Below are positions 2,195-43,511 of a stretch of DNA of 64,000 bases, piece after piece. The translations under genes were made by a program, and so were the position numbers. Origin of the DNA: Eukaryota sp. GEM-RC1 (taxonomy: Eukaryota); assembly GCA_040285855.1 (NCBI GenBank), contig JAUFOQ010000004.1, positions 2,418,001-2,482,000 of the forward strand. The letters are read 5' to 3'. The notes beneath the pieces were generated by a model. That model ran no database searches. It worked only from the letters and a program-made list of their open reading frames with translations, and was not told where the DNA came from. The first letter of the stretch is position 1. Each line of letters starts with the position of its first letter.

Positions 2195-5100
2195 ATGTTG
2201 CTAAAGAACACTCTTGATCAACAGGTTTTAGCTTCTTCTTTTTCTGATGTCTTCTCTGAGTCTAACGCTGCTTCTACTTCCATCAAATCTTCTCCTGAAG
2301 TTCCGATCCCTGCTTCTCAGCAAATTCGAAAAAGAGCTCTACCTAACTGTTCTTCTTGTGGTCAATTAGGTCACCGAAAAAATCAGAAAGTTTGTCCAAA
2401 TTTTGATTTGCCTAAAATTCCTGATTCCCTATCGGCTGCCATTGCAGAAGTCTCAAATGTTGTTGACAATCTGGCTGTCACTTCTGAGGTTACGGCAGAA
2501 GACAACGTCCAGCCTCTTTCTGACAATTCTTTTACAAAATTTGGTCAGTCCAATGAATGTAATTTTTGCAAAACTGTTTCGGCGTCTTGCCTAATTAAAA
2601 ACAATTATTTGATTTGTGGAGATTGTCTCTCTGTTGATACTCTTCGACCTCCTGTGAAAATTCCAAATCAACTCAGCCCCAAAGGTTCCATTCCTTTTTC
2701 TATTGCTTTTCGGTCTTTTACTCTAGTGCTTTCACTAGGTTCTTGGGATGTTCTTCACATCTGGAAGTTTTTTCTTGAGAAACAATCTCAATCCTGCACT
2801 CGCCCTAAGAAAGTGTTTGCTCCAAAGAAATTACCAAAGGAAAAAGTTGTACGTCAACAACTTCTTCGAGGTAGGTATGGTTCAGCTAAGAATGCCTTGT
2901 TTTCATCAGATCTTGCTCCTGTTTCTGAGGACACTGTTTCTCAACTTCAGGCTCTTCATCCATTGGAAAATTTTTGTCCTGTCAAGCCGATGCCTTCTTT
3001 GTATTGGAAAGAAAACCCCATTAGAGTGGATGAGTTGATGAGTTGTATTTTAAAACTCCCTTCAGGAAAAGCTCCTGGACCTTCAGGTATTACTTTTGAT
3101 ATGCTCAAATCTGTTTCACGTCAAAATTCACTTATTGTTGAAGATTTATGTCTCTTTTTCAACAATGTTTTGTTATCGAAGGTTGTTCCTCCTAAAGAGT
3201 TGTCTGCTTCTCGTTTGGTTGCACTGATTAAGCCTAACAAGAAAATCCGTCCTATTGCTGTCGGTGAAGCTATTTACCGTTTGTTTGCTTCTGTTGTCTT
3301 TGGAAGAATTTCGAACAAAGCCAAGGATTTCTTTTCACCTTATCAATATGGTATTAAAACCATTTATGGAGCTTCTGTAGCTGCCCTTTCTTCTGATGTT
3401 TTCTTCAATGCGGTTGAAAATAATTGCATTTTCAATTTGGATTTTAAGAATGCTTTTAATTCTGTTAAACGATCTGCCATTTGTTCTGAATTGGAAAAGA
3501 GTTTTCCAGAATTAAATACCTTTTTCATTGTTTTTATGGTCACTCTTCTGACTTAATTTTTAATTCATTTGTTCTTAATTCTGTTTCTGGTGTTAAACAA
3601 GGAGATCCTCTTGGTCCCTTCTTTTTTTGTTTGGCTATTCATCCAATCCTGAAAAAACTCAAAGAAGAACATGCAGACTTAGAAATCGTAGCTTATATGG
3701 ATGACATTTCTTTTATTGCTCCTATGTCAACTCTTCGTATTATTGCGAATCAGGCTGCTGATTTGTACGATGCAATTGGACTTCAATTAAATGTGCAAAA
3801 ATGTTTTTTGATTGCCAAGGTACCTGTAACTTTAATTGTTAATTCTTTAGAGGTTCCCTTTGTGAACTATTTATCTTCAAGCTTTAGATTTCTAGGTTGT
3901 TATCTTGGTTCACATGACAACATTGTTAAAGATCTGAATGTATATTTGGATTCGATGCGAAAAGAATTAGATCAAATTAAGGAATTGCAACTGGAAAAAC
4001 ATCTCAAATTCTTTATGCTAAAAATTTGTTATTCAGGAAAAGTTACTCATCTGCTTCGCTCTCTCCCCCCTGTACTTACCTATAACTTCTGTAGAAGCTT
4101 TAACAAAATTCGTACTGACTTTCTTGCATTTTTGTTATCAGTGGATCCTGCTGCTTTGAACAATCACATCTTCTCAGATCCTCATCTTGGTGGTATTGGT
4201 TTCACTTCGTCTAAATGGTGGACCAAATCTGCTTTCATTGGTGGTGGTAAGAATTTTGTCTTTGAGTTCTGTAGACGGTACCCAGGTCAAGAAAATCTTC
4301 TTGTTTCGACAACTAGTTTTTTCTTGGTAAATTTGAGATCAGAATTGTCGCTAATTTCACCTGACCTCTGGCAAACTTGTTTTCCAGCAGATATTTGTGA
4401 AATACCAGAACGATGTGTCACCTCGTTAAAATTTGCTCTTAAGAAACTCCAAAAACACCTTTTAAAACATTTTGAATGTCTGGATTTTAAAATTCGACTT
4501 GGCTCGGCCAAAGAAAAAAATCCAGCTTTCGCAAATTTTTTAATCGATTTGAAGGACAGTTCTTCAGTTGCTTTGATTAACCAAATTCCTCAGATTTATG
4601 GTTTGTTGTTGAATGATCATCAATGGACTACAACATTCAGACTTCGATGTTTCTTGTGGCCCTCTAATTTACCCAATGATCTTCAATGTAAATGTGGTAA
4701 ATTAGTTACTTTTTCTCACCTTTTGAGTTGTAATCGTTTCATTACTTATAGAACTTGTATTCATGATGCTGTTAGAGATCAAATTCATGCCATGTGTAAG
4801 TCCTACAAAATCGAATCTTTCGTTGAGCCACTGTTGAGGTCACTGGAAATCAATAATTCAAAAAATAGTGATTCTGATAAGACTTTTGGTAAAAGAAGAG
4901 CTGATGTCATAGTTCCATCAGTCAACGATGAACTAACCGTTGTTGATGTGATTACTGTGGATGTTTGCAAAAAAGTGCTTTCAAGGATGCTAAAAATGAA
5001 GTTTCTCCACTGAATTCTTCAGAACAATACAAGAGAAACAAATATGATGAACCACTGACTGCTCTCAAACATATTAGACATGTTGAGTACAAATTATGTC

Positions 5101-14463: not shown

Positions 14464-17400
14464 CTATCCCAAAGACCGTACAAAATCAGCAAGCATCTCG
14501 TTTGAATCAACAATACTCTGAGGAATCATTGAAATCAACTGGAAACTGATCTCTTCTTCGTCTTTCAAAGTCCTCAACATTCTTCTGAAAACAAAAATAT
14601 AAAGACAAATAGCTACCAAAAGAACAAAATCAACAGTAGAACAGTGAACAATCGTTGAGTGGAGATCACTGAGTTGAGCTCTTCTTGATAGAGATCTAAA
14701 GAGTCTAAAGACAGTGACGTTAAACCTCGACCAACATTTACTAACTCTTGTATATACTCATTTTCAAAATCCCAGTAAATTCCTTCTTCTAGATTAACAA
14801 TTGAAGAACAAAGGATAATAAACTTGTTAACTAAAAAGTTTAATCCAAAATCTCCAGTAGTTGAGCTATTAAACTCATTGACGTTGAATCTTGTGTTGAA
14901 CAAAAGTTCGTTTTGAGGAGGATATCGACCTGCTGAAGCTTCTTGAATTTGAAACTTCGTTTGAAATAACAATGAATTATGAACATTTTGCAATTGGTCC
15001 AAGTTTCCGTCCAGTAATCTGATTGTAGCAACACGTGTTCTCGGAACAAACACAGCATCTAACACTTGTCCAAGGATTCTAAACACTAGAGTTACTCTAT
15101 ATCCACTCTCTTGAAGTTGAGTAGGCCATTGTTGTAAGCTACTAGTGTTGTACAAGCAAATTCCAAAGAACATAGATAGAGTTACACCTAGTAGAAGTAA
15201 AGAAAACGTACTCTGTCTGTTGAATTTTTTAATCATTACCAAATTGATTACCTGTTTGATATGATTGGCAGACTTCTTACGTGGAGAGCAGATAAAGATG
15301 AATAAAACCAAAAGAACCAAAGTAAGAAAGACAAGCGCAAAGACAAGATAACGGGAAAACAGGAAATGCAATGGAGATCTGAATGAATCTAAAGTATTTG
15401 AAAATTCTGAAAGTATATCAGTTGTAGGACCAGCGAGGTAATCATAATAACTAACTGCAATCACAGTGAAGAAGTCACGAGACATGATTAAAGTTCTTGC
15501 CAATTCCAATTTCTTATCAGCATCTCTATTGTTCATGTCAAAAGTTTTGTTAGTATAACGGTGGGAAATAGGCACTGAGCGTTGATTTAATCGGGTAATT
15601 GGATAATCAACTTCTTGAGTGACGTCCCAGTCGACTTCAATCAATTCTGATGTCACGTTAATTGGGTAATCAAATGCAGAACCAGAAAGAGTAAGTGAGA
15701 TCTCTTGAACGTGGAATAGGCGACCGTAAACGTCATCAATGGACTCAAACAGATCATCAACACGTTGCAACACATCATCAACCAAAGTGCCTCGCGTTTT
15801 TACTAAAATTTTAATATTTTCAACATTATCCTCCAATATTTTCCTATGAACCCAATAGTTTTGGTAAGCGTCCAAAGAACCCGCCGTAGCAAATCTATCA
15901 GCATTGTACCTAAAAGAAGTGTAGGAATGACGAGCTTCAAAGAAACCGTCGAGAAGATTCATGACGACTGTTGACGTGTCTCTGATTGACATCAACTCAG
16001 ATCGATGAAGAACGAAAAGAGAAAGAGCTGAAATCGAAATGAGAAGCGACAACACACAAGTAGCTATAAGAACACTCCTTAAAAGTGGTTTTCGATGTAA
16101 CTGTCGATGGAAATAAAACGGAACAAAAAGAAGTAAGATAAAGACGGCAGCAAAAAGACTGATATCCAACACCGATCTGATGTCAAGGAGAAATGGCGGG
16201 CAACATTGTCCTCAACATGTGCATCGAGTAAGTTCAAAACACTCCACTGATTTCGAGTTGATTGAAGTAATACGTCATTATAACGATCAGAACTGATTGT
16301 GGATCGGATTACTTTGAGCTTTTCCTCATCAGCAATCATTTGATCAGTTTCCAAGTCGGAATACCAATTATCGACATCGTTATAAACAATCTTATCATGT
16401 GAAAGTGTAGTTTCAGAATTCAAATCATAAGTAAATCCACCAAGTTCGTGTAATTCGTTGGAATTAAACTGATATACTTGTGCAGCCAACACTTGAGCAA
16501 TATTATCAAAATAAAGTAATCCATCACGGAAGACAGACGTATCACCAATCAGAGTTTTGATTTGATTAGAAACGTCATAATCGTAGAAAAGTGATTCAAT
16601 TAGAGTTTCACGGGCACCTGCATTTAGGAAGGACCAATAACTTTGATAGAAAAAGAGATCTCCCGAATTGACAAGACCAAATATTCTAGAAGTTAAAATA
16701 TAGTCGAGTACAATTAATTCCACCGCAGAATTTTCTAAATATTGACCAGAAGTCAATGCAGTAAGATATTCTTCGTGACTATTGGAAACTGAATTAAAAC
16801 TGAATAGTAGTGACAATGAGATTAAAATTAAAACAATGACAACAGTTAAGGGCACAAATTTAAAACGATATTTGACAGGCAAATCGTCATGAACATCGCC
16901 ATCAGATTTGATTGACACAGTAACTGAATCATCAGTTCTGGGCTCCTCTTCGACACTGTTTGATTGGTCTAATCGTGATTCATCAACGTCATTAGATTCA
17001 GAAATGTCCTCAAAATCAGGATCACGTTGGTGAGTACGACCGAAATTTTTAATTTTTACAGTCAATTCGGAAACAATTGAACGACACGTCACTGATGGCA
17101 CCCACAAAAATAAATTCAAAACTGCCTGTCGTTCCCATGAAATTTTTGAAATTACTCTATAAAATCCAAATAATGCAATAAAGAAGAGACAAACAACAGA
17201 AGAAATTAGAGAAATCAAGATAATTAACAAAGTATAATCAAAGAAACGTTGAGAAGAGTTCAAAATAGTTTCCCAAAGAACTGAACCACCAATATTTAAA
17301 GTCCTTCTATTGTCAGTTAAAAACCGGAAAAAACGATCTTGATCGACATCGACTTCACTATCAAAAGAAGAAATGAAATTAAACGCTGTGCTAGCAAAAG

Positions 17401-19853
17401 ATGATACCAGTTCCCAATAGTTGATAATGCTAGGTTCATTGATTGGAGGAGAAGTATTTCTGTAGAAAAAGGCAGTAATTGTTGGATTCCTAATAAAGTT
17501 ATTAATTAACTCGTCATTAATTCTATCTAGTGGCGCTTCGTTAACTCTCGGGCAGATAAAGGAACTGGTCGTAGTTAAAGCGTCAGCTGACATGAAGATT
17601 CTTCTGGCGTGGTAATTAATATGCTCTGCTGTTTCAACAATTTCTTTTCTATAATGAGGCTCTAAAGTAGAATTGTAAAAGATGGAGTACATTCTGGCTT
17701 CAACTATTGCTTTGTTAGACATCGCCAAGACGTGAGAACTTTCCAAGAGTTGTTGAGCTCTATTACCAACGTCATGCAACGTGTCAGAAAAGAACCAGAA
17801 AGAAATCAGGGAAACAATAAATAGTAGTCCAAAAGAGCCAAAAATCATACGTGATAAAACGGAAACTAAATCGTGGTGATCGTGATTCGAAGATGAGCTC
17901 AAATCAACTCCTTTTCTTCGTCTGGATCTACGTCTTTTTTTAGTAAAACTTGATTTGGAAAGCACTGAGCTCCTTTGTGATTGAGCATCAGATGATCCAG
18001 TCGATGATTGAAGCTCAAGACTTTCCATTATAGACCCTGCCAGCTCATCATCCATCTTGATATCTTTACAAAAGATAGCGTAGGCTAAAAGCAAGTCCTT
18101 GTGATCAGGAAAAGCACCAAGTAATGAAGCAAAGAGAGTATCAGCTTTAAGTTTCTGCACTCTGAGCTTGTCTGTAATCAAAGGGAGACGTGAGAGCTCT
18201 ACTCGTTCACTCAAGAGAACGTTCCAGAACTGAGAAAGAGCTTCTAAACAGTCCTGGTGAAGCTCCTTGACTTCTCGAAAATTCTTTTGAAACGTAATTG
18301 ATGACTTGGCATCGAGGTAGTCTTCCCCAGTATTAGACTTTCTTCGAAGAGCTTCAGAAGACTTTTGATAGAAGAACAATAGGTAACGTTGACGAAAAGT
18401 CAAGTCAACATCAAGATTATTAATCAAAGAATTCAATGATATATATGATAAATGGTTCTCCTTAATGAAGGTTTCGAAATTGCATTTAAACAGATAAGAA
18501 TCAACTGAATCAGGAAAGGTCACGATTCCATGTTCGATGACGTGATTGGCAACGTCAACTTGCTGAGCTTTACTTTTGTGGGGTTTTGGCTGCAAAAAGC
18601 GTGTTAACAACTCAATTTCAAACCAATACTTGACAGGAACATTCTCAACAGCACCAGAAACTTCATCTGCGGTGAGTGACACGTCATCAATTGAGCTGCT
18701 GACGTCATCAGTGTCAGAATCAACTTCAACTGAAACAGATTGATTGACTTGAGGTTTGACACGTTGCACTTTCGAACTAGAATTAACATAAGCTGCAGTT
18801 TTCTTAGAGTATTTGTCATAGACATTGGTGACTGACCAATAGAAAACAAGTCCAAGAATAGCAGAAGTTAATCCCCAAACAACAAGAACAATCAATCCAG
18901 ACTGTCTGTCAGATAATGAAAATTTAGCAGAAATTAAAATATTTGCCAATAAAGTGATTGATGACGCAGGCCATTGAGAAATCGAAAGACAAAAGTACTG
19001 ATTTGATTGCTTCTTGTAGAAAGGTATTGTTCTGATAAAGAGAACAGGAACGACGATGGAAGCCAAGATATAGAGAGATCGGAAGAGCCACACTCTAAAA
19101 GGAAACAAAAAGAAAGAGAAAACAATGACGTTTTTGGAAATAAAGAGCCAGAAGTGACTCAGAGAGGTAGATCGAGACCACAGTCTTTTTGATAGAGGTG
19201 ACACGTCAGCAGCGCACGTGTAGAAGACGAGAGTGATCAAAAAGAGGGCAACAATGACTACAGCAGAAACTATCTTGATAAGGATACCACCAATACTCCA
19301 ACAATCTTCAAGAGAGAAGAAGGGGTGGAAGAGTAAAGGAGGAGTGGAATCCAAGGGAAGACACGTGAGAGAGGAAGTAAGAACGGAAACAAGGGGGGAG
19401 GTAAAGAAGGGAACAGAAGAGTGTGATGAGAGCTTTGAGGATGAGTGAGCCGACGTTGTACTGTACCCCATCGCTGATAAAGATTACATACAGACAGAGT
19501 AAGGCGATGAAGCAAACCGAAGAGATGAGGATCGTGAAGTAAGAGGTCCAGGAGTAGATCTGGGAAGAAGCTACAGAGATGGGAATAGCGAGGAACTGAA
19601 CAACACGGAAATCGAACAAGGCGTCCCAATGTTTGATGTTGGAGACATTGATAATAACGCCACATAGCTGCAGTATTTCCAAGGTCGCCAGAAACAGGGC
19701 GAGAAAGTGGAAACGTGTGGTATCAAAGGATAGTCTCTTGATGAGGTGAAAGACTCGAACTTCGAGCTTCTGTGCATTAGTGATAGACCTATGTTGTAGC
19801 GCTGTTGAGTGAGAATGGGTTTCACTGTGAGTGCTTTGATGATTGTCTATCAT
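14464..19853 (-). CDS. Large multi-pass membrane protein, TmcB/TmcC-like (~1790 aa); frameshifts at ~19395, ~16170 and ~14620
   Basis: N-terminal transmembrane bundle; helical repeat FW..LL...V.L..L......K..A...F..LL..FP....LL..YA.F..DI..D; Ser/basic linker; repeated TM plus ERQAVLNLFLWVP and C-terminal L.MIP motifs; adjacent ORFs join across short indels. Confidence 0.65.
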
Positions 19854-20173
19854 GTTGACGATCAGGAAGAATTCTGTTTCAAGTGAGGGTGAGAGTCGAA
19901 AATTTTCCACCCGGATGCCACCCGGGTGGTTTTCAAACACTGGCTAGTGGTTCCCATTCCTGTGACTGCAACCAAACTGTCCTTAGACAAAAAAACAACT
20001 GTCAGGACATCACGAGGTGAGGCGTGTGCGCCAAAGTTGACAACTATACATGCTTATTGTATGTAATCATTGGTTGTTGTATTTTGAATGCTTCAGGTGT
20101 GATATGCTGGAAATAACAACATTGTTTTCGCCTTCGATTGTTCCCACACTGAAACATTTTGTTTGGTTGGGAT

Positions 20174-25369: not shown

Positions 25370-26695
25370 TACAGTTCGTCTTAGTTTCGTCTAGGGAAAC
25401 TGAGCCAGCTTTCGCTAATTTTTTAGTGATTAAAAATTTAATTTGTGTATTAATTAATCAAATCCCACAAGTATACAGTATGGTTTATTATAATATGATC
25501 ATCAATGGGCCACAACGATGTGTCTTCGTGGCTATTTGTGGCCATACAATTTGCGTGTGAGTATGAACTGTATGAGACCATAATACCGACGAAATTGAAT
25601 CCTTGGTTGAATCACTTCCATAAAACAATTGTGATGATGAAAAACAGAATCAATTTTCATCTTCCAAGAGCAGAGAAGACTTCATCAAATATTTTGGAAA
25701 TTGATCTTGAATTACAAGGATCAACAGTCGTGAAATCCATGATAATTTCCTGACAGGATAACCAAGGACCAATCAAATCACCACGACTTCTATCAACTTT
25801 TGGCTGATCAGAAAGATTAGCAAGACTTCAAAGGTATGGTGACTTCTGTATCTAGCGCTTTATTATCTCTTGGCAGACATTATGAGGATAAAGTAGGTGA
25901 GAATTTCCAGATAGGCAATCTGGACTTTGAGGATATTGATTATTAGATGTATGTACACTGTAGTGTTGTTGTCAATAAAAATTAAAAAAAAAGTAGGTTG
26001 TATTTCGTTAATTTATAACATAAAACTTTTAAACTTTTCTACTTGTGTGTGTGGTTCTTCTTTAGCCTCTTTCCATCATGTGGTCAACTGTCATAAGTTT
26101 ATTCATTTAAGATCAATTATTCATAACAGTTTACGTGATCAATGTTTAGAATTGTTTAAGAGCAATGGTTTTCATGGGAAAATTGAACCAGTTTTAAATA
26201 GTTTGTCTGACTCAATTATGAGAGATAAGAGCAGAGGTGATTTGATTGATCCTTGGTTGTCCTCTCAAGAAATAATTATGGACTTTACTACTGTTGATCC
26301 TTGTACCTCAACTTCTGTTAACAAAATTTTAGACGAAAACTATTCAGCTCTTGAAACTGCTGAAAGGAAAAAATTAAATCGTTATGGCGAATTAATTTCC
26401 AAGATGAATTCTCGCCGACACAATCCTTTTGTTTTCCATCCTTTTGCTATTTCTCTTTATGGAACGTTTGGTTGCTTCGGTCAACAATTTCTCACAGATT
26501 GTGTAAGCAGTATGGAAAGAATTTTAGTGAAAGTTACTGGAGAGGAAGGTTGTCGTTTTCCCTTTCAAAGTATTTTGATTCGATTTTGAACCGTCTCTTT
26601 GCATTGAGACATGAATTTGAGATGATGTAGAAATAATTGTATCTCATTTGTTAATATTGATGATAGTTTGTATTTGTAAGAATATATAAAAGGCG
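25370..26695. mobile_element. Mosaic of LINE fragments (A'-like, inverted family D piece, family E 3' end, family B 3' half)
   Basis: 25690-25824 matches 46270-46405; 25830-25950 matches the family E 3' end; 26040-26695 encodes CVCG..HVVNC, HNSLRD, RGDL, MDFT. Confidence 0.85.
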
Positions 26696-32959: not shown

Positions 32960-35095
32960 CGTGCATCTCCAAATTCAGAAAAGATAATAAATAGGAGAGT
33001 TATTCACATGCCACAAAGTATGAAGATCCCCTCTTTTATCTGAAAACTCATTTTTCTGAAAAGTGATTCAAAACCGGATCAACTTTAGAGTGAAAACCGT
33101 GTGCTGCAGACATGGAATAACAAGAATGACGTTCACCATCATAAATTATTGAATGTAGAAGAATAAAATAACGACAATTTATTAAATGACGAAAACACCA
33201 TTAGCTCCACAAGACCAAGTTGAAAAGTATTCAAAAAAACTGGCGGGCAATAGCCAACCGAAGACGCATATTGATCATCCAAGGTTCATCAGATAGATGC
33301 AATCCAAACACTTTTGGAATTTGAGAATTAAATCCAGAAGGTCCACAATTACAAAGGTCAAAGAAAAATGCAGCTTACTCGGGACTATTAGTTTTAGCCA
33401 CGCTAATACGAATATTAAATTCCAATCAGTTATCTTTAAAATACTCTAATTAACCCAATACTAGCCCTTCCCTAATCTAGCCACGGAGCGGTAGTAAAAT
33501 ACCTAGGTTCAACAAATGAATCAATTTTGTACGACTTTCAGGACAAATAGTTGCCGTTGGTGTCTTGATAAATGGTCTTTAAACCAAATGCCGTTCAGTA
33601 TTTTCACACGGTTATACTACGTTAAAAGTTTGCGGTTTTGTATCGATTTTTATTGTTCGTAAATGTTGCTAAAGAACACTCTTGATCAACAGGTTTTGGT
33701 TAAATCACACTAACTTCACACATTTTTAAACAATTCATGACAAACGATATCAAACGATCTTTTAAGTAGTAAAAGGATTTTATAGGAAATGCCTCTGTCA
33801 GATGCAATGACAAGGAATGTTCATTGAGTAAAGTAATAAAGCTACAGTATAAAGTTATCTTGTTTATTGTTGGTTGGTTGTTGACTTCAAGTTAATTACT
33901 AGCCCTTACCTGATACAAGCCCCTCCGTTGAAGTAAAAGCTTTATTCGGTACCCAAAAAGGTAACCTTCCTACAAAACTATGAAATTGTAAAAACAAACA
34001 AATAATACTAAGATTAAATACAAACTACTTCATCACCACCCGGTAAAAGATACGTTTATCAACGTTAATCTTCGCACCAAACTTGTACAATTTCTCGATG
34101 AATCGAGAAAAATAGAAAGGTATATTCCGATATGAGGAAAACACTATTCGGTTCTTTTATTCAGACACTCTAAACTTACGCTTCTTTTCTTTACACAGGT
34201 CTTCCAAATCCTTGACAAATTGATGACTAGCAGGACTAATCGATCCAAAAAGAGAAACAGCAAAAGGGTGAAACACAAATTTGGAATATGAGTTTCGATT
34301 TAATTCTTCTACTTGAGAATCATACTTGGAGTGTTTGAGCTTTTCAGCTGCTGTTAACGGATGAAAAGAAGAATCTAATATCCTACCAACACAAGATTTG
34401 TTACAAACATCTACTGTAGTAAAATCCTTTAATGATTGACTCGATTTAAGCCAAGGATTATGGAGATCCCCCCTTTTTGATCAGTAAATTCATTTTCTGA
34501 AAGATGATTCAAAACTGGTTCGACTTTAGAGTGAAAACCGTGGGCTTTAAACATGGAATAACAAGAATCACGTACACCATCATGAATTACTGCACGTAGA
34601 TGAATCAACTATCGACAATTAATTAAATGACGAAAAACACCATTAGCTCCACAAGAGCAAGTTGAATAGTTAAATAAATTTGCAGGCCAAATAGCCAGAA
34701 GAAGACGCATATTGATCATCCAAGCTTCATCAGATAGATGTAATCCATACACCTTTGGAATTTGAGAAATAAATCCAGAAGGTACAAAGATCAATTAAAA
34801 AAGCAGCGAACTCGGGACTATTAGTTTTAGCCAAGCTAATACGATTTTTAAAGTCCAAGAGTTCAAACCCCTTGTCAATTTATTTTGCTGCTTACATACA
34901 GCAGACGGTAGAGATGAAATATTTTTTAAAGGAGACTCCTTTACGTGAGCAGGCAACAGAGATTCCCACATTTTGGGAGACCAAGATGATACCAGATCTT
35001 TAGATCTTCCTAATGTAACGCTTTATTATATCTTGGCAGACAATATGAGGATAAAGTAGGTCACAATTTCCAGATAGGCAATCTGGACTCTGAGG
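32960..35095. mobile_element. Degenerate family C LINE fragments (minus strand) flanking an empty-site copy of the 1638-5703 repeat (~33425-33925)
   Basis: 33940-34870 is the reverse complement of family C RLE/3' end; 33425-33925 aligns to 1607-1720, 2066-2229 and 5420-5630. Confidence 0.8.
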
Positions 35096-35797
35096 AAGGG
35101 GTGAGAAAAAATATATTTATATTGTATTTATTGTAATAAATATCTATTTATTTATTTATTTATTTATTGTTCTTTGAGTTACAGACAATATATTTATTGT
35201 TGGTCAAAACAATAAACAATATTATTGCAATATATTGCAATATATTTAAATATATTGGTACATGTATCCTATTTTGGCTGTTTTTACAGCAATACATGGT
35301 GCCTTTTTTTGAAGAAATGCAATGTAAAGTTATCGATTGGAGGTTGCTGAGCACGATACAATTCTATCTGAGTGTTCTATAAGTCTGAACATAAGGAAAT
35401 TGTTACCCACTACTTTTCAAATCTGTACTTGCCACGATTTGTCCTGCTTAATACGACGGAAACCCAAACTGTTCTGTTGTTGTGCAATTGGCGTTACTCC
35501 AAAGAAGTATCTTCAATCAGAGTCTTATTCACTACACATCTATTGAGCTCTCTTAGGACGATGACGAGTCTGAGAAACATTTGATATATCATAAAAATTG
35601 TTAGAGCTGTTCTTGTCTCCTTATTGACACATAGAAACTAAATACAATTAACCAATATTTATTGACCATAAATATATATATTTATTGTTTTCGACAACAA
35701 TAACAATATATTTATTTCTGTCAAAAACAATAACAATATATTTATTTTTATCGAAAACAATAAACAATATATTTAAATAAATATCTTCACACCCCTG
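35096..35797. mobile_element. hAT-type MITE inserted in a family E LINE 3' end
   Basis: TIR AGGGGTGAGAA / TTCACACCCCTG; degenerate 8-bp TSD CTCTGAGG / ATTTGAGG (uninterrupted LINE has CTTTGAGG); CAATATATTT subterminal repeats. Confidence 0.7.
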
Positions 35798-36094
35798 ATT
35801 TGAGGATAATGATTAATAGATTTTTGTACACTGTAGTGTTATTGTTTTTTTTGGGCTGTAGTGTTGTTGTCAATAGTTATATTTTATTTGCATTTTCTTT
35901 CTTTGTACAACCTTTCAAAATATGTTCAAGAAACACACTTTGGATGTATATGATATCCTCATTCTTGTGACTTTTATTAAGGAATAATAGTTGATACCAA
36001 AAAACATCACACGATTTGTCTGCCACACACGGACGATGGTGAATTTGTGTTTGCTTAGGTTTAATGAAGTGATTGAAAAAATCATCACTGAGAG

Positions 36095-39000
36095 TTGACA
36101 GATCTTCCAGAAATAAATTTACCAACTCCAAAAATAAATGTTGCTGCTTGTGAGAAACCTGAAACAACAGAAACAACAGAAACAATTGAATCATCTCACA
36201 CCACTGAAACAACAGCAGCAACAAGTAATAGTAAGACAACAGTTGCCAAAAGGAAAACCACCAAACCAAAAGCAAGTGGAATCTCAAATGCTACAAAGAG
36301 TTTGAAACCTCCTAAAAAACCAATGATTGAGTTTCTCAAACATTCGCAATTACCAAATAACTCTAATCATTGTTCAGTATTGTCTTTTGATATTGAAACT
36401 AGAGAAATTGATCAAATCCCTGCAGAGACACTTACAAAGGAGTTGGATGATCAAAGAAAGAACGAGAATGAATCTCTCAAAATGAAAAGTGATGCAGAAA
36501 GAGAAGTGTGGACTCAAAACCAACAAGTTTTTATGATTTCTGGAGTGTTTGGTCATTTTATAAAAGATCAATTTTACCTTCAAGACAATTTTGTTGCAAC
36601 TTTAGAGTTGACTCAAGAATCTGATGTTGAACTGCCACCTGATTGTAGAAACCTTCGATTTTTTGAAGACGATAAACAGTTACTAGAGTTTTTTGTCAAC
36701 TATTTGAATGATAAAAATCCATCAGTCTTAACTGGATTTAACATCACTGACTTCGATAATGTTGTTTTAGGCAAAAGGATTGTTACACTTGGATTCGACT
36801 TTCCAGAACCAATGCTAGATGAAACAACTAAATCTCATCTATCACCTCTATGGCAAAAGATTGTTCTGAATGGGCTGGTAGAATTGTCTGTGATTCATAC
36901 GTTTATGCTAAGCAATATATTGTTTCAAAATGTTCAAAGTCTTTAAGATCATTAAGTTGGTTTTTATTAAACGAATCAAAAGGACGTCTTCATGACAAAT
37001 TTCACCACTTATTGCCTATTAATTGTGTTGATGAAAGACCTCAAGAAGTTGTAAACTATTGCTTCAAAGATAGTGTAATAGCATTGAAGTTGTTTTTATT
37101 GTTTCAATCAAATAAAATCGTTCGTGCAACTTTTGTAACACATAAAACTACACTAAAGTCTATTGTCAAACATTTTGGATTAACGTTATTACTCGATTAT
37201 TATGCTCAATTGGTTCACAAACTTAGAATGCATACTTCCTATTGTTTGAAGCTGTTTTTATTACACATGGATAAGAACGGTGAAAAATTACCTTTAATTA
37301 CAAGGAAGGAAGTAGAACATATTCAAACTCTGTTAAGATACATCTCTGCTGTACATCATGAGATTAAATTATGTAATCAAGGACCAGCTCCTGCATTTAA
37401 TCAACACTTGAAAAACTTTGTTTTACAAGAATACAAACAAGTGATGCTCAACAATGGAGGAATTCCACGCTTTCCAGCTGCTCATTCCTCACGACCTACG
37501 GCAATGGTTGGTGAAACTATTAAATCGAATTTGGACACCAATATTACAATGCGATATGCTCAATACATTGACAAATTTATTAATGTTTATTTTCAAAAGA
37601 CTGATCAAGAAGAAAAAATGTCAAAAAAAGAATAGTCTGTTTTTCGTTGGAGACTTAGACAAGTTAAAAATGTCTTTCTTGAAGATAACAGAAATGATAT
37701 TCCAAAAACCACTGTAGAAATAAAACAATTTATTCAAAGATGTACTAGTAATACAGAATTTCTTCAAGACGACAGTAATCGAAGTTTGAACATTGCAGGT
37801 AAAATTAAACTTCTGTGGGCAACTAACGACTATGTTGAAGGATTGTTTAGAGATAGATATTTTATTGATGTTCTCTTCCCACCATCAATTGATATTCAAA
37901 ATGCTAATGGTACTTCTAAAAAGAAAGTCGTTAAGTCTCTACTAAAATCAGTTCGTGAACATCCCCAGTCCTTTATTAAATCTGCGATTCAAATAAATAC
38001 CTATCTTGAAAGTGAAGGAGCAAGTGCTTACAATATAATTCCCATTGTTCGTCACGTCACACCAGGTTTCTTTCAAATAGACACACAAGGTCTTTGGGGA
38101 ATATTACGTTCCACTTTGTCAACACAACAAGTGAATGTCAAGAAGAAAATGTCTGATTGGAATACACAAACTGAAATTCAAAAATGTCTCCTGCTGAACA
38201 AAATCAATTCTGGTCTTACTTTTTCAACTTTAATCGTCCATTTATAAAGAAAGGTTATAAGTTTAACAATACCATTAAAACTGATGGTTTCTCTGCCTGT
38301 GTTGAACTTACCAGAGAGGACTGTGTGGGAATGTCATTCAAACCAGACAGTGCAAAGTTCTCCAGTAAAGAAGAATATGTTCAGGACTATGATGTTGACG
38401 AGTTTTCATTGAAAACAAAAGTGTTTATTGATCCTGGAAAACAGATTTACTCTATTTTTGTTCAGAGAAAGTAAATAGGCCATTTCCTGAACAAAAAACC
38501 CGAGAAAGAAGAGATAAAGAATATGAGTGGCTAAGATTGACAGAGACAGAATGGTCCAGATGATCAAGGGTTCATCAAAAGTTTAGAAGGGGAAAGAAAA
38601 AAGAATTCATTCTCCAAGATGGAAAAACAGTTGAAGAAGAAGAGTCGACACTATCCAAAGAACATTCGAAATCCACTCTTTATGACACATTCTATGACTA
38701 TGTGGGTTCCAAACTTACAGTTATTGAATCAACATTTGATTACTACTGTTTGATGATATGGCGCATTCAAAAATGCAAAGATACGTTCATATTCAAAAAA
38801 CAGAAAGTAAGTTGTTGAAAAATATGACTGCAAAAGGATGGAATAAAGATGACTGTGTATTGATGTTTGTTGACAATGGTAATAAGAGGTAGAACCTAAA
38901 ACATCTCCGATCAAGTAGAGGTGTTGGTTGGAGAAACTTCTTTAAGAGAAATGGTTTTAACATAGTTCTTGTAGATGAGAGTTACACGTCTTCATAGTGT

Positions 39001-39246
39001 CCTACTTGTTGGAGGCCAGTTAAAGTGTTCAAAGAAATCAGTAATCCAAAACCATGGAAAAGAGAGAAGAAACCTCTGATAAAGTGTCACGCTTTGTTGA
39101 GATGCAAATCCCAAGAATGTAGGGAAGAATGTCATGGTAGCGCCAAGATTTGGAATCGTAACAAGTTAGCATGTATCAACATCAAGACAATTGTGGAGCA
39201 TCATTTGGAGCGGGGTCTAGGAGTTAGACCCAGTTATTTGTCATAG
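36095..39246 (+). pseudogene. Fanzor1 (eukaryotic TnpB-like RNA-guided nuclease) fused N-terminally to a PolB-type DEDDy 3'-5' exonuclease domain; decayed
   Basis: ExoI SFDIET, ExoII TGFNITDFD, GRIVCD, ExoIII YCFKD; then Fanzor1 blocks KTTLKSIVK, N...RY..YIDKFINVYF, PQSF..NIIP..PGFFQIDT, FW..FF..YKFNNTIKTDGFS, RuvC-I FIDPGK(T)DLLY, LVDESYTSS*CPTC, NPKPW, HALLRC, WNRN, RPSYLS; 4 in-frame stops and 4 single-A frameshifts. Confidence 0.85.
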
Positions 39247-39253
39247 TCATAGT

Positions 39254-41664
39254 TAGGGATGGGCAAACTCCAACTCGACTTCACTCCACTCGTAGAAATT
39301 ATAGAACTCCAACTCGACTTCACTCCAAACAATAAATTTTACAAGTGAACTTCACTCGAACTTCACTTCACTCCAAACTCAAGTCACTTGAACCACTTCA
39401 CTCCACTTCTGAATTTTATTTTTACTCCGAATGCTTATAAACAAGAAAGGAATCTTCTTGTTCAATATCGACCGCCTTCCTCCAGCGATAACTATTGTCG
39501 AAAACCCGCCGGCTTTAAAGCAAAGCAATCTGGCAGTTTACACCTGTTTCGAAACTACTACGTTTAGTGTCGTCGACAGTGCTCCTCTGACACGTAGAGT
39601 CTGTAAAAAGTGTTTACCAAATAGAAAACAGACATACGCTCTTGAAACTTCTTCTTCGGTGTTAACAAAACATGTTACGGACAAACACGACTGGGTCAAC
39701 CCTGATGTACAATTATCTCAATCAGATGAGTCGTCCGAATCTGATGCTGATCAGAAGGTTCTCTACGACTTTAGCCTGGTTCCAGAACCAATTAAGCTCA
39801 ACGAACGACAAACAACACATCTTAACACTCTTATTCGACACTATGTTGTTGAAACAAATCAACCTCTGTCTTTAGTTGACTCGGACATACTTAAGATTCT
39901 TCGGTTCTTCTTGGGAAAGGATTTTGAACTGTGTTCTCGCAGAAATCTCACCATTACGTTAAAGAACGAACATGCTTTATTACGAATGAAACTAACTGAG
40001 CTCTTATCTACTCAGTCTGTATGCTATACAACGGACGGTTGGACCTCACCAAATAATACCCCCTTTATTTCTCTCACTGCTCATTTCATCACTTCTAAAT
40101 TTCAACTTGTGAATGTTTTAACCGATTTACGTCCTTTTGGACATCCACACAATGAAGAAAGAACTGCCAGGTGTATTACTATGATGCTTAATGACGTTAA
40201 TGCGAAAAGAGATCATTCGTTCACGGTTGACAATGCTCCCACCTTACACGCTGCATTGAACAGAATCAATTATGAACGATCTGAACTGGGTAAAGGTTGC
40301 ATTCTAGAGATGAGATGCTTTGCACACATCCTAAATATTGTTGTCCAAGCTGGACTTCTTCACGTAGAAAACACTTGTGAAAAAATTCGTAAACTTGCCC
40401 AAACCTTGGCAGGCTCAACACAACTTACCCAAGAATTCCGGGATTGTTTCGAAGACCTAAATATTCATTCAATTAGAAGAGATGTGAAAACTCGATGGAA
40501 TAGTACATATTTCATGCTTTGTACTTATCTCAAACGGTTACAAGCGATCAACCTGTTTTTTGCAACAACCGAAAATGAAGATATTTCCGAATTACAACTT
40601 ACGTCTCAAGAACTTGCGAATGTTCGCTGTTTGTGTGATATTTTGAAAGTATTTTATAACACAACAAATACTGTTTCGTACTCAACATGTTCAGTTGGAC
40701 CGGGCGTAGTAATGTTCGCCGAAATAGAAAGGCAGCTTAATATTCAAGAGAACAATAACCAACACAGACCATGGGTGTTGCGGATGATTTCATCGATGAA
40801 GGATAAGCTGGTCACTTATCATGATCATATCTATAACTTCACAACATATGTCGCTATGCTTCTTGATCCTCGTGTTAAGACGAGATTGATGCCATTGAAG
40901 TTGAAGACTGAAAACTTCAGAGAGCAGTTCAAAGAATATTTTATTTCGCATCAACCCTCTCTTGATGATGAATCAGTAGAAGTCCAACCTGCAGAACCTG
41001 CAGAACCTGCAATCGTTGAAGGCGAAGTCGTTGATATTGATCCCGTACCCGAATGCTCTCTCCATTTGGCTGTTTCACATCTGGTTGATCAACATGAGGA
41101 GCCGATTGGCGAACTTGACTCATTTGAACTAGGTCCATTGGAACCCCTTACTTCTAATCCTTTAAAATTTTGGAAACACCGAACAGATAAGTACCCTGTT
41201 CTTTCTTCCATAGCTCGTCAGTTTCTTGCTGTACAGGTATCATCAGTTGCATCAGAACGATGTTTTTCTGCAAGTGGACGTACGCTCAGCAAAACAAGAA
41301 ATCGTCTCTCTGATGAAGTTTTGGAAGTACTTCTTTGTCTTAAATCATGGTATGCAATGAATCTAAACGTCCCTTCATAGCCTTAGTGTAATAAATAGGA
41401 TAAACAACTTGTTAGACTTTCCTTTATTTGTTTACCTTGTTTCTAGTGACAAAGCATATAGGTGTTACTCTACAGCGGTAAAACTATTGTACAGCCTACT
41501 CAAAAATACTGGTTAAATCACAAGTTTCACTCCAACTCGACTTACTCGTAAAATTTTGACAGAACTCCAACTCGACTCCAACTCGTAGAAATTTGGAGTG
41601 AAGTGGAGTGAAGTGGAGTTTGGAGTCTACTCGTAGAACTTGAGTGGAGTTTTGCCCAACCCTA
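39254..41664 (+). mobile_element. Complete hAT DNA transposon
   Basis: TIR TAGGGATGGGCAAACTCC / GGAGTTTTGCCCAACCCTA; perfect 8-bp TSD GTCATAGT (39246-39253 and 41665-41672); ACTCCAACTCG subterminal repeats. Confidence 0.95.
39431..41380 (+). CDS. hAT transposase (BED finger, DDE core, dimerisation domain), uninterrupted
   Basis: CKKC..H...KH; TTDGWT, TVDNA, CFAH, TRWNS, LLDPR, FWK..YP.LS.IAR, SVASERCFS. Confidence 0.93.
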   Translation: MLINKKGIFLFNIDRLPPAITIVENPPALKQSNLAVYTCFETTTFSVVDSAPLTRRVCKKCLPNRKQTYALETSSSVLTKHVTDKHDWVNPDVQLSQSDESSESDADQKVLYDFSLVPEPIKLNERQTTHLNTLIRHYVVETNQPLSLVDSDILKILRFFLGKDFELCSRRNLTITLKNEHALLRMKLTELLSTQSVCYTTDGWTSPNNTPFISLTAHFITSKFQLVNVLTDLRPFGHPHNEERTARCITMMLNDVNAKRDHSFTVDNAPTLHAALNRINYERSELGKGCILEMRCFAHILNIVVQAGLLHVENTCEKIRKLAQTLAGSTQLTQEFRDCFEDLNIHSIRRDVKTRWNSTYFMLCTYLKRLQAINLFFATTENEDISELQLTSQELANVRCLCDILKVFYNTTNTVSYSTCSVGPGVVMFAEIERQLNIQENNNQHRPWVLRMISSMKDKLVTYHDHIYNFTTYVAMLLDPRVKTRLMPLKLKTENFREQFKEYFISHQPSLDDESVEVQPAEPAEPAIVEGEVVDIDPVPECSLHLAVSHLVDQHEEPIGELDSFELGPLEPLTSNPLKFWKHRTDKYPVLSSIARQFLAVQVSSVASERCFSASGRTLSKTRNRLSDEVLEVLLCLKSWYAMNLNVPS

Positions 41665-41672
41665 GTCATAGT

Positions 41673-41732
41673 CTATATTTACTACAGTGAATCTGTAGCA
41701 CTATTGAATCTTAGAATTCACTACATTGTACA
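41673..41732 (+). ncRNA. Candidate Fanzor omega-RNA scaffold remnant (directly follows the Fanzor stop codon once the hAT is removed)
   Basis: Positional inference plus hairpin CTACAG-tgaat-CTGTAG (41682-41698) and TGAAT/ATTCA stem (41705-41720). Confidence 0.25.
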
Positions 41733-42581
41733 TAGGGTTGTTAAAATGAGCCGAGTCAAGTCGAGTCAAGCCTACAATTTGAAGCTTGACTTGACTCATG
41801 AGTCAACCGAGCCTGACTCGAGCTGACTCATTTTGATTACCTTGACTTGACTTGACTCATGAGTCAACCGAGCTCGACTCGAGCTGACTCATTTTGAATG
41901 CTCTTTTCTATTGTACTTTATAACATAACACAAATCTCTACTGTTTTCTACTGATCTGAATTTAATACACCTATTCCGTACCACGAGTGTAAACACAATA
42001 AACACCTTGCAGTATTGCAGATAGTCTAGCCCTTTCCTTTGTTACAATTTGGTATGCAGCAGAGAACAAACGTTCAATTGCTGCTGAACTTGGCCGAATG
42101 CTTAAGTAGTCGCGAGCTGAGCAAGCTGAGCTAGGATAATCTGATTGGTAGCGTTTCCACCAATCTAGGGGATCCACCGCAGCATCGACTATGCCTGTTG
42201 ATAAGTAAGCTGTCAGCTCATCCCGCACATCAACATGCAATGAATTTATACAGAGAACTGCTACTAATTCCATGTACAGGTGATTGTACTAGAATACGTT
42301 TAAATTGTACTAAATTACATTCATTAGAGTAAACTTGAGTAGAGCTGACTCACAGACAGAAACATAGGCTTGACTCGACTCATGAGTCAAATGAGCCTGA
42401 CTCGAGCTGACTCACGGACAAAGATATAGGCTTGACTCGACTCATGAGTCAAATGAGCCTGACTCGAGCTGACTCACGGACAAAGATACAGGCTTGACTC
42501 GACTCATGAGTCAAATGAGCCTGACTCGAGCTGACTGACTCAAAGCTCAGTGAGTCAGCTTGACTCAAAATTACAATCCTA
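41733..42581 (-). mobile_element. Non-autonomous hAT element carrying only the C-terminal dimerisation-domain fragment
   Basis: Perfect 8-bp TSD ATTGTACA (41725-41732 and 42582-42589); TIR TAGGGTTGT / ACAATCCTA; ORF 41971-42273 DPLDWWK..YP....ARDYLSI.PSSAAIERLFS; ~61-bp GACTC-rich subterminal tandem repeats. Confidence 0.92.
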
Positions 42582-42599
42582 ATTGTACATGTACCATGA

Positions 42600-43511
42600 A
42601 TGAAGTGTCCCCTATGTACTCATTGTTTTCAAGGCACTGAAAATCGGTATCTTCATGTTAAACGTTGCGGTTCTCAACAAGGATTAACAACTGCTCAAAT
42701 TCTCTCTGTATGGAACAAAACTCGAAATCCTACCACCCCTGGTTCAGAAAGAACTGTCCGTCCGGTTAATAGCGAACCTTTCCCTTTATCTCCCGTCTTA
42801 GTTGCAACAGACCTTTGCTCTCCCAGGAAAAGAAGACAAGCTTTGTTGAACAAATCGCTAATCGAACCTATTCATTCTTCTCGTTCCTCCCCTTCCTCCC
42901 AACGGTCTCTTGTCCCCTGGTTTAACGAATACGATCATTCCACACAGTCTTCTTCTCAAACCACGGATTGTTTTTGTTCTAAGTGTGGTGGATCCTTCAC
43001 TACAGCAGAAATGACTGAGGTTTCACGACTTAATGAAACTTTTGAGCAAGATAAGCGTGCGCTTCAATTAGAATTTGATCAGAAACTTTCAGCCCTCCAA
43101 GACCAACTTTCTACTTCTATCCATCAAGTTCATCGAACACGATCACAGATCTGTGTTCAACTGGTCTCTTCTCCCACAAGAAACGAAAGAAAACGTCATC
43201 CATTTACTATTTTAGGAAGCGGAAAAATTCAAAAGAGTTCTTCTGATTTAGGGAAGAACAATCAATCAATTAAAATCAACAGTCAGAAATTAAGAAGATT
43301 GACGGATGCAGAGGAGCATTTTCTTTGTCATGAGTTTCAAAACAACGACAAATTAATTGACATTTGGATATCAATGTTGCTTTTTGAAACTATTTCTGTA
43401 GACTTTTTAATCAAAACTTTACGAGAACTTGGTTTTTCATATTCAAAAGGAGCTTTATGTTCATTTTTAGACAAACAAGGTGTAATTTTTAGAAGTGAAT
43501 TAGTCGAATAA
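42600..43511 (+). CDS. SLX4: Compact SLX4-like protein (N-terminal UBZ-like finger, C-terminal SLX1-binding domain)
   Basis: CPLC...F.....R..HVKRC......QIL resembles the SLX4 UBZ; C-terminal W..MLLFETI....L...L...G......L..FLD.QGVIF resembles the SLX1-binding domain. Confidence 0.6.
   Translation: MKCPLCTHCFQGTENRYLHVKRCGSQQGLTTAQILSVWNKTRNPTTPGSERTVRPVNSEPFPLSPVLVATDLCSPRKRRQALLNKSLIEPIHSSRSSPSSQRSLVPWFNEYDHSTQSSSQTTDCFCSKCGGSFTTAEMTEVSRLNETFEQDKRALQLEFDQKLSALQDQLSTSIHQVHRTRSQICVQLVSSPTRNERKRHPFTILGSGKIQKSSSDLGKNNQSIKINSQKLRRLTDAEEHFLCHEFQNNDKLIDIWISMLLFETISVDFLIKTLRELGFSYSKGALCSFLDKQGVIFRSELVE

Follow-up and report, generated by a model that had tools for sequence, protein, structure and literature searches.

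The window analysed here, a stretch of 64,000 nucleotides from Eukaryota sp. GEM-RC1, encodes at 36092-39246 (+) a PolB-type DEDDy exonuclease followed, without a linker, by a Fanzor1 nuclease. We regard it as virtually certain that this natural exonuclease-Fanzor1 architecture is real and family-wide. The copy in the window is itself a dead pseudogene copy of a multicopy mobile gene. The fusion is a conserved Fanzor1 variant and a natural design of which no description was found in the literature searched. The locus and its 3' flank comprise the following features:

36092..36379 (+): Thr/Lys-rich linker remnant ahead of the exonuclease; 36092 is the truncation point, placed by the start of the match to relatives, and the upstream modules of longer relatives are absent
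36380..37119 (+): PolB-type DEDDy 3'-5' exonuclease (ExoI 36383, ExoII 36734, ExoIII 37057; frameshift near 36862), placed by PF03104 and residues 1-246 of the relative P0035
37120..39246 (+): Fanzor1 coding region with frameshifts near 38184, 38440 and 38772 and TAG codons at 37633, 38890 and 38995, placed by tblastn tiling and by comparison of P0035 residues 248-940 with SpuFz1
38427..38441 (+): RuvC-I DPG motif, catalytic Asp at 38430, placed by alignment to SpuFz1 and PpFz1
38971..39120 (+): RuvC-II Glu at 38977, then a C4 zinc finger (CPTC 38998; second pair near 39103-39120), placed by motif; PF07282 is weak and below the cut-off in relatives
39151..39168 (+): RuvC-III with Asn at 39160, where most Fanzor1s have Asp, placed by clade alignment
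39254..41664 (+): hAT transposon with a 655-codon ORF, 7 nt past the Fanzor stop (PF05699, PF14372; 8-bp target duplication 39246-39253 / 41665-41672)
41673..41732 (+): displaced rest of the original Fanzor 3' flank between two hAT insertions, candidate omega-RNA or element end
41733..42581 (-): second hAT, internally deleted (8-bp target duplication 41725-41732 / 42582-42589; PF05699 on 41974-42288)

An earlier note on this DNA, made from the sequence alone, had joined the fragmented open reading frames into one frame of about 1050 codons. Indeed, intact relatives tile 36203-39240 by tblastn as five colinear pieces, but the gene is 5'-truncated at 36092, so that these 1050 codons are not the whole gene, and a hAT transposon occupies its 3' flank. 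Five relatives (P0008, P0016, P0017, P0031 and P0032) match from 36092 with their own sequence extending upstream, and no convincing match to the collected relatives was found at 35000-36091. The roughly 245 nt just 5' of the truncation point (35846-36091) were without a convincing match either to the collected proteins or elsewhere in the window. All DEDDy and Fanzor motifs named in the note are present. In the window translation, the exonuclease motifs start at 36383 (SFDIET), 36734 (GFNITDFD) and 37057 (YCFKD), and the Fanzor motifs at 37141 (HKTTLK), 38280 (TDGFS), 38427 (IDPGK), 38971 (VDESYTS), 38998 (CPTC), 39151 (WNRNKL) and 39226 (RPSYLS), ahead of the stop codon at 39244-39246. A single stop-free frame (36832-37632) holds both ExoIII and the start of the Fanzor part, about 25 codons apart, which bears out the claim that both lie in one uninterrupted frame.

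Decay of this copy is evident from four one-base shifts of the reading frame, all next to short runs of A (near 36862, 38184, 38440 and 38772), and from the TAG stops at 37633, 38890 and 38995, where relatives carry Q, Q and K, respectively. Blanket homopolymer compression was not seen (18 runs of five and 7 of six in the element; 308 and 105 in the window). Because run lengths in the element resemble those of the window, the frameshifts may be genuine lesions or may have arisen in assembly.

The surroundings are eukaryotic DNA with many retrotransposon and hAT pieces. Non-LTR retrotransposons occur in many copies; they encode reverse transcriptase and, at the C-terminal end, a cysteine/histidine and nuclease-like region. 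The longest, at 2195-5013 (+), has one frameshift inside the reverse transcriptase, and fragments lie at 277, 21072, 25915, 34157, 44806, 45927, 48920, 56630, 59102, 61716 and 62987. One retrotransposon tail is split by an AT-rich element with internal 30-nt palindromic repeats (35097-35798). Because its two flanks overlap by 8 nt on an uninterrupted copy at 25850-25972, a hAT-type MITE with an 8-bp duplication is suggested. A large gene for a TmcB-like membrane protein (PF25474), broken into several overlapping frames, lies at 14613-19943 (-).

The ORF at 36092-36943 matched PF03104 (E 1.5e-10, 41.3 bits, cut-off 23), and ExoI DxE, ExoII Nx3FD and ExoIII Yx3D are all present. Pol delta was the best sequence-profile match of the exonuclease (E 1e-11; next E 5e-8). 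To compare the fold of the exonuclease alone, we used the predicted model of P0030, which is about 90% identical to the window. Its top 17 structural matches were all family-B polymerases (Z 13.3-17.9, with Pol alpha at 17.9), and phi29 scored Z 9.2 and DEDD RNases Z 9-11. Residues 1-246 of the P0035 model likewise aligned to PolB exonuclease folds (Z about 16); structure scores were tied among PolBs, and the modelled domain carries a helical insertion after ExoI. Profile and predicted fold (Z 14-18 against 9.2 for phi29) support an exonuclease closer to replicative than to protein-primed PolB, in line with the resemblance to delta-like or giant-virus PolB noted from the motifs, and the donor may have been host Pol delta or a large-virus PolB. 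No polymerase-domain family was matched in Pfam scans of the window ORFs and of the relatives' models, and the Fanzor fold starts at residue 248 of P0035 in place of palm, fingers and thumb. A whole family-B DNA polymerase was ruled out on these grounds, and the earlier statement that no palm is present holds.

Taken alone, the Fanzor part of the window matched SpuFz1 weakly (E 1e-4), but the match was strong via an intact relative (E 7e-30), and the profile match to SpuFz1 reached E 1.9e-40. For the whole protein, we used the predicted model of P0035 (940 residues, pLDDT 85, pTM 0.71, a pTM that does not place the exonuclease near a DNA end). Its residues 248-940 aligned to SpuFz1 18-631 over 567 residues (Z 28.3, rmsd 4.0; Foldseek E 1e-28, target TM 0.81), and the expanded WED/REC/RuvC/TNB fold of Fanzor1 was recovered with Z 22-28 to three Fz1 structures. 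The exonuclease and Fanzor folds abut at 246/248, and a linker is absent. A structure-atlas search with the whole protein returned Fanzor-type clusters only (score 0.76), which we treat as a lead only. The identity of the C-terminal half, which the earlier note had proposed to check against Fanzors, is upheld by the matches to SpuFz1.

Within the clade, the RuvC-I Asp is kept in 16/17 members, with DLG replacing DPG in one TZLM1-RC subfamily, and the RuvC-II Glu in 13/13 readable members. In the window this Glu (38977) stands six residues before the zinc finger (first Cys 38998), a shift that is a Fanzor1 feature and has been described at the same six-residue distance (PMC13565253). The C4 finger between RuvC-II and RuvC-III (CPTC and CKSQEC) aligns to the SpuFz1 and PpFz1 cysteines. 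The RuvC triad of the clade is D-E-N (WNRN in the window): 13 of 17 members carry Asn as their third catalytic residue, the rest being three frameshifted tails and one gap, whereas 98 of 103 other Fanzor1s have Asp. The Asn thus departs from the RD motif of Bao and Jurka (2013), in which the third residue is Asp. Because GtFz1 is an active nuclease with Asn at this position, and the D606N change raises the activity of SpuFz1 (PMC11423790), we rejected a dead RuvC as the default reading of the D-to-N change; by analogy with these enzymes, the RuvC of the intact clade Fanzors is probably live.

One frameshift extends beyond the window copy. At the one-base site near 38772, ahead of RuvC-II, all six GEM-RC1 models that reach it (P0004, P0005, P0021, P0022, P0026 and P0029) are frameshifted, as is the window, whereas 17/17 TZLM3-RCL models are in frame. 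Since the GEM-RC1 models agree, their lineage may have multiplied with an incomplete RuvC. Run-length counts do not decide whether the shared frameshift stems from an error in the assembly, from an inherited lesion or from a programmed -1 shift.

Relatives were found in GEM-RC1 (best 85-95% identical), TZLM3-RCL and TZLM1-RC, on many contigs and in multiple copies. Such strains are Skoliomonas, free-living metamonads with nanopore assemblies corrected by Illumina reads (PMC11316075), and the hosts of the intact relatives are soda-lake protists. The intact relatives are known from gene models. Of 219 proteins collected, 41 carry an exonuclease, the window's own two left out (15 GEM-RC1, 21 TZLM3-RCL, 5 TZLM1-RC and 0 from other sources). 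The same fusion thus recurs in many relatives of three assemblies, and a one-off chance junction, a possibility the earlier note had raised against itself, was rejected. All five exonuclease residues and the RuvC D-E-N occur together in 10/219 models (9 TZLM3-RCL and 1 TZLM1-RC). Among sequences covering each position, ExoI D is kept in 28/28, ExoI E in 27/28, ExoII D in 32/32, and ExoIII Y and D each in 34/34. Both the exonuclease and the Fanzor are likely to be active in the intact protein.

Exonuclease-bearing members in the three Skoliomonas assemblies have diverged to about 25-35% identity, and exonuclease identity between subfamilies is 26-52%. Nevertheless, 26 residues separate the ExoIII Asp from the Fanzor start in 10/10 aligned rows, with no indel. 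Exonuclease and Fanzor identities co-vary among seven representatives (Spearman 0.60, p 0.015), and both supported groups are common to the exonuclease tree and the Fanzor tree. The kept catalytic residues, fixed spacing, correlated identities and matching tree groups point to co-inheritance of the two parts over a long time, which is an argument about descent and does not imply function. In a tree of 120 of the 139 aligned sequences, arbitrarily rooted and with 18 that were too short and P0203 (aberrant tail) dropped, 16 Skoliomonas Fanzors and one other protein form one clade (support 1.0). Among the best 150 of 1103 library matches, 4/147 Fanzor representatives carry the exonuclease, all of them from Skoliomonas. 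Viral contigs and metagenome contigs yielded no related loci, and of 32 loci picked up with a motif pattern, not one was matched by any of six Fanzor queries in tblastn.

Longer relatives revealed upstream modules that are absent from the window and could not be seen from it alone. These comprise one or two Ulp1/C48 protease domains, with PF02902 above the cut-off in P0009, P0012, P0008, P0016 and P0018 and the HW and DCG motifs (His, Cys) present, as well as 2A-like motifs, searched as D(V/I)ExNPGP. The latter occur in nine collected proteins (five exact, four variant), always upstream of the exonuclease. The module order is 2A-Ulp1-Ulp1-exonuclease-Fanzor in P0009 and P0012, 2A-Ulp1-exonuclease-Fanzor in P0041 and P0048, Ulp1 tail-2A-exonuclease-Fanzor in P0218 and P0215, and 2A-exonuclease-Fanzor in P0114 and P0203. 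In none of the collected proteins does a 2A-like or Ulp1 module stand between exonuclease and Fanzor, and Pfam scans of the relatives' models revealed no recurring transposase, helicase or polymerase domain. P0010, P0013 and P0014 carry the exonuclease-Fanzor module behind foreign N-termini: two of them, from different contigs, have the same tandem-repeat leader, and P0014 has a helicase-like region. Such unrelated N-termini may be joins made in gene prediction.

At the 3' end, the first hAT (39254-41664) sits where the omega-RNA would be encoded. It is apparently intact: its 655-codon frame is free of stops, its terminal repeats match each other and its target duplication is perfect. The second hAT remnant lies 60 nt beyond it. 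The first hAT was rejected as carrier of the Fanzor, since a target duplication of its own and its location within the Fanzor 3' flank mark it as a later insertion. Fanzor-hAT 'associations' reported from proximity could in part be such secondary insertions. Folding of the 3' flank, a single sequence split by the hATs, was not significant (best z -2.1 of 51 windows, median -0.5), and the flank gave no Rfam match. Discounting the two hATs, no more than about 80 nt separate the Fanzor stop from the start of an SLX4-like host gene (42600-43511, +; PF09494, E 3.4e-6). SLX4 serves as a scaffold for flap nucleases; the proximity is probably a coincidence. The idea of an omega-RNA pseudoknot was dropped, as the SpuFz1 RNA is described without one (PMC10432273).

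We propose that the intact protein would act as a self-finishing homing nuclease in which tail-trimming by the exonuclease aids homing, a reading to which we give an even chance. 2A skipping, and possibly the Ulp1 protease, would release an exonuclease-Fanzor product, which an omega-RNA from the 3' end would guide to the element-free allele. There, the D-E-N RuvC would cut about 14-21 nt past the TAM, like SpuFz1 and GtFz1, whose non-target-strand cuts fall 16-17 and 14-17 nt past the TAM, respectively (PMC10432273). Because the cut is offset, the TAM-side fragment would keep a displaced 3' end of about 15 nt without a match at the donor's left junction, a short non-homologous tail to be removed before copying. 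The tethered exonuclease would chew back this tail, and the end could then prime copying of the element into the site. In line with such an activity, proofreading by yeast Pol delta can remove non-homologous tails and shortens invading 3' ends by up to about 40 nt (PMC9477423). OMEGA nucleases have been modelled as enzymes of a restorative form of homing, in which the allele lacking the element is cut (PMC13565253). By analogy with Pol delta, anchoring a PolB exonuclease at the N-terminus of the Fanzor would suit removal of a 3' tail rather than 5'-3' resection. The earlier note had suggested resection of the cut ends, but a 3'-5' exonuclease has the opposite polarity and cannot perform the classic 5'-3' resection that starts homologous recombination; we replace that proposal with 3'-tail trimming. 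Against the homing reading counts that homing was shown for bacterial TnpB and not for these elements. More tentatively, and with somewhat less than even confidence, we consider a self-contained RNA-guided homing enzyme: a polyprotein processed by 2A and Ulp1, whose Fanzor would cut the empty site and whose captured proofreading domain would remove the exact 3' tail, with spread by gene conversion, possibly without a transposase of its own. If true, nature would have arrived at a cut-and-trim editor biased towards templated insertion.

The same conserved exonuclease residues would also suit a destructive editor that erodes both cut ends, so that its targets (empty alleles, rival elements or viral DNA) are deleted and not converted. 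TREX2-SpCas9, likewise a 3'-5' exonuclease fusion, raises deletion rates (PMC13370227). However, MmeFz2 edited less well with TREX fused to it, no set of targets or guides came to light, and a selfish multicopy element would presumably gain more by copying itself than by deleting host DNA; we therefore hold a destructive role to be unlikely. The analogy to engineered Cas-exonuclease fusions, which the earlier note had drawn, is weak as well: TREX1, TREX2 and T5 lowered editing by MmeFz2, and T5 lowered that by SpuFz1. Since these fusions reduced indel editing (PMC12923547, PMC13434818), they argue against a simple reading of 'more deletions', although homing was not their readout. It is less likely again that the exonuclease acts in transposition or replication of the element itself, for instance in finishing the ends of a Helitron-like or virus-derived polyprotein element, and that its fusion to Fanzor only ensures co-expression or nuclear delivery. 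The polyprotein traits (2A-like and Ulp1 modules) and the variable 5' regions on a constant 3' module in P0010, P0013 and P0014, a pattern also found in MCi-2 (Bao and Jurka), are what this role would predict, but the family's 2A-like motifs never split exonuclease from Fanzor, the spacing between the two is invariant, and transposase, helicase and polymerase domains did not recur in the models scanned.

Maturation of the omega-RNA by trimming of its 3' guide end, also suggested in the earlier note, found no support here and appears improbable. Many DEDD enzymes are RNases with the same fold (Z 9-11), and Fanzor guides are protein-protected over about 15 nt (PMC11423790), yet the domain groups with PolB DNA exonucleases (Z 14-18; E 1e-11), well above the DEDD RNases, and other Fanzor1s make their guides without an exonuclease, which is absent in 143/147 library matches among the best 150 of 1103. 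Least weight of all goes to an attenuated or dispensable RuvC, with the protein being an RNA-guided binder that delivers the exonuclease, or carrying an idle domain. The clade-wide D-to-N change at RuvC-III, the common GEM-RC1 frameshift ahead of RuvC-II and the DLG of one TZLM1-RC subfamily would agree with this, but Asn is compatible with Fanzor1 activity and can raise it (PMC11423790), RuvC-I D (16/17) and RuvC-II E (13/13 readable) are kept, and 17/17 TZLM3-RCL models are in frame near 38772. With an end-processing enzyme kept on a Fanzor across three species, the family would allow the homing model to be tested directly in eukaryotes.

We searched the literature by title and abstract start, largely outside subscription journals, and found no natural Fanzor-exonuclease fusion; supplementary Fanzor tables could list some. 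The word 'exonuclease' is absent from the main texts of Bao and Jurka, Saito, Jiang, Yoon, Altae-Tran and a 2026 review (PMC13565253), and a further paper mentions DnaQ-like domains only in LTR elements (PMC6338049).

Among known systems, SpuFz1 of Spizellomyces punctatus (PDB 8gkh, 9cez) shares with the clade the whole Fanzor fold, the DPG of RuvC-I, the shifted RuvC-II Glu and the C4 finger. It differs in lacking exonuclease, protease and 2A, in its D-E-D triad and in its size (about 640 residues, compared with 940 to 1900 in the clade), and has a defined omega-RNA and terminal repeats. GtFz1 of Guillardia theta (PDB 9cer; fold Z 22.4) has the D-E-N triad of the clade, but is more distant (17% in structural alignment) and has no fused enzyme; the common Asn may have arisen independently. 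The proofreading domains of replicative PolBs (Pol delta, alpha, epsilon, Pol II, ASFV, herpesvirus) resemble the exonuclease in DEDDy motifs and fold (Z 14-18), and differ in that palm, fingers and thumb are absent from the clade, which has a helical insertion after ExoI. The exonuclease of Cas2-DEDDh has a 3'-trimming role in CRISPR adaptation. This DnaQ-like protein of type I-E systems (PDB 8fyc; Z 10.9) is likewise a natural fusion of a 3'-5' exonuclease with machinery of mobile DNA, but is of the DEDDh class, sits on an integrase subunit, is prokaryotic and performs no RNA-guided cleavage. In the engineered fusions of TREX1, TREX2 and T5 to MmeFz2 and of T5 to SpuFz1, an exonuclease is likewise joined to a Fanzor terminus. 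These are artificial and lowered editing, whereas the natural junction is invariant and its two sides have co-diverged. While the engineered pairs have so far lowered activity, the family provides ten natural intact candidates in which a nuclease and an exonuclease form a compact pair through an evolved junction.
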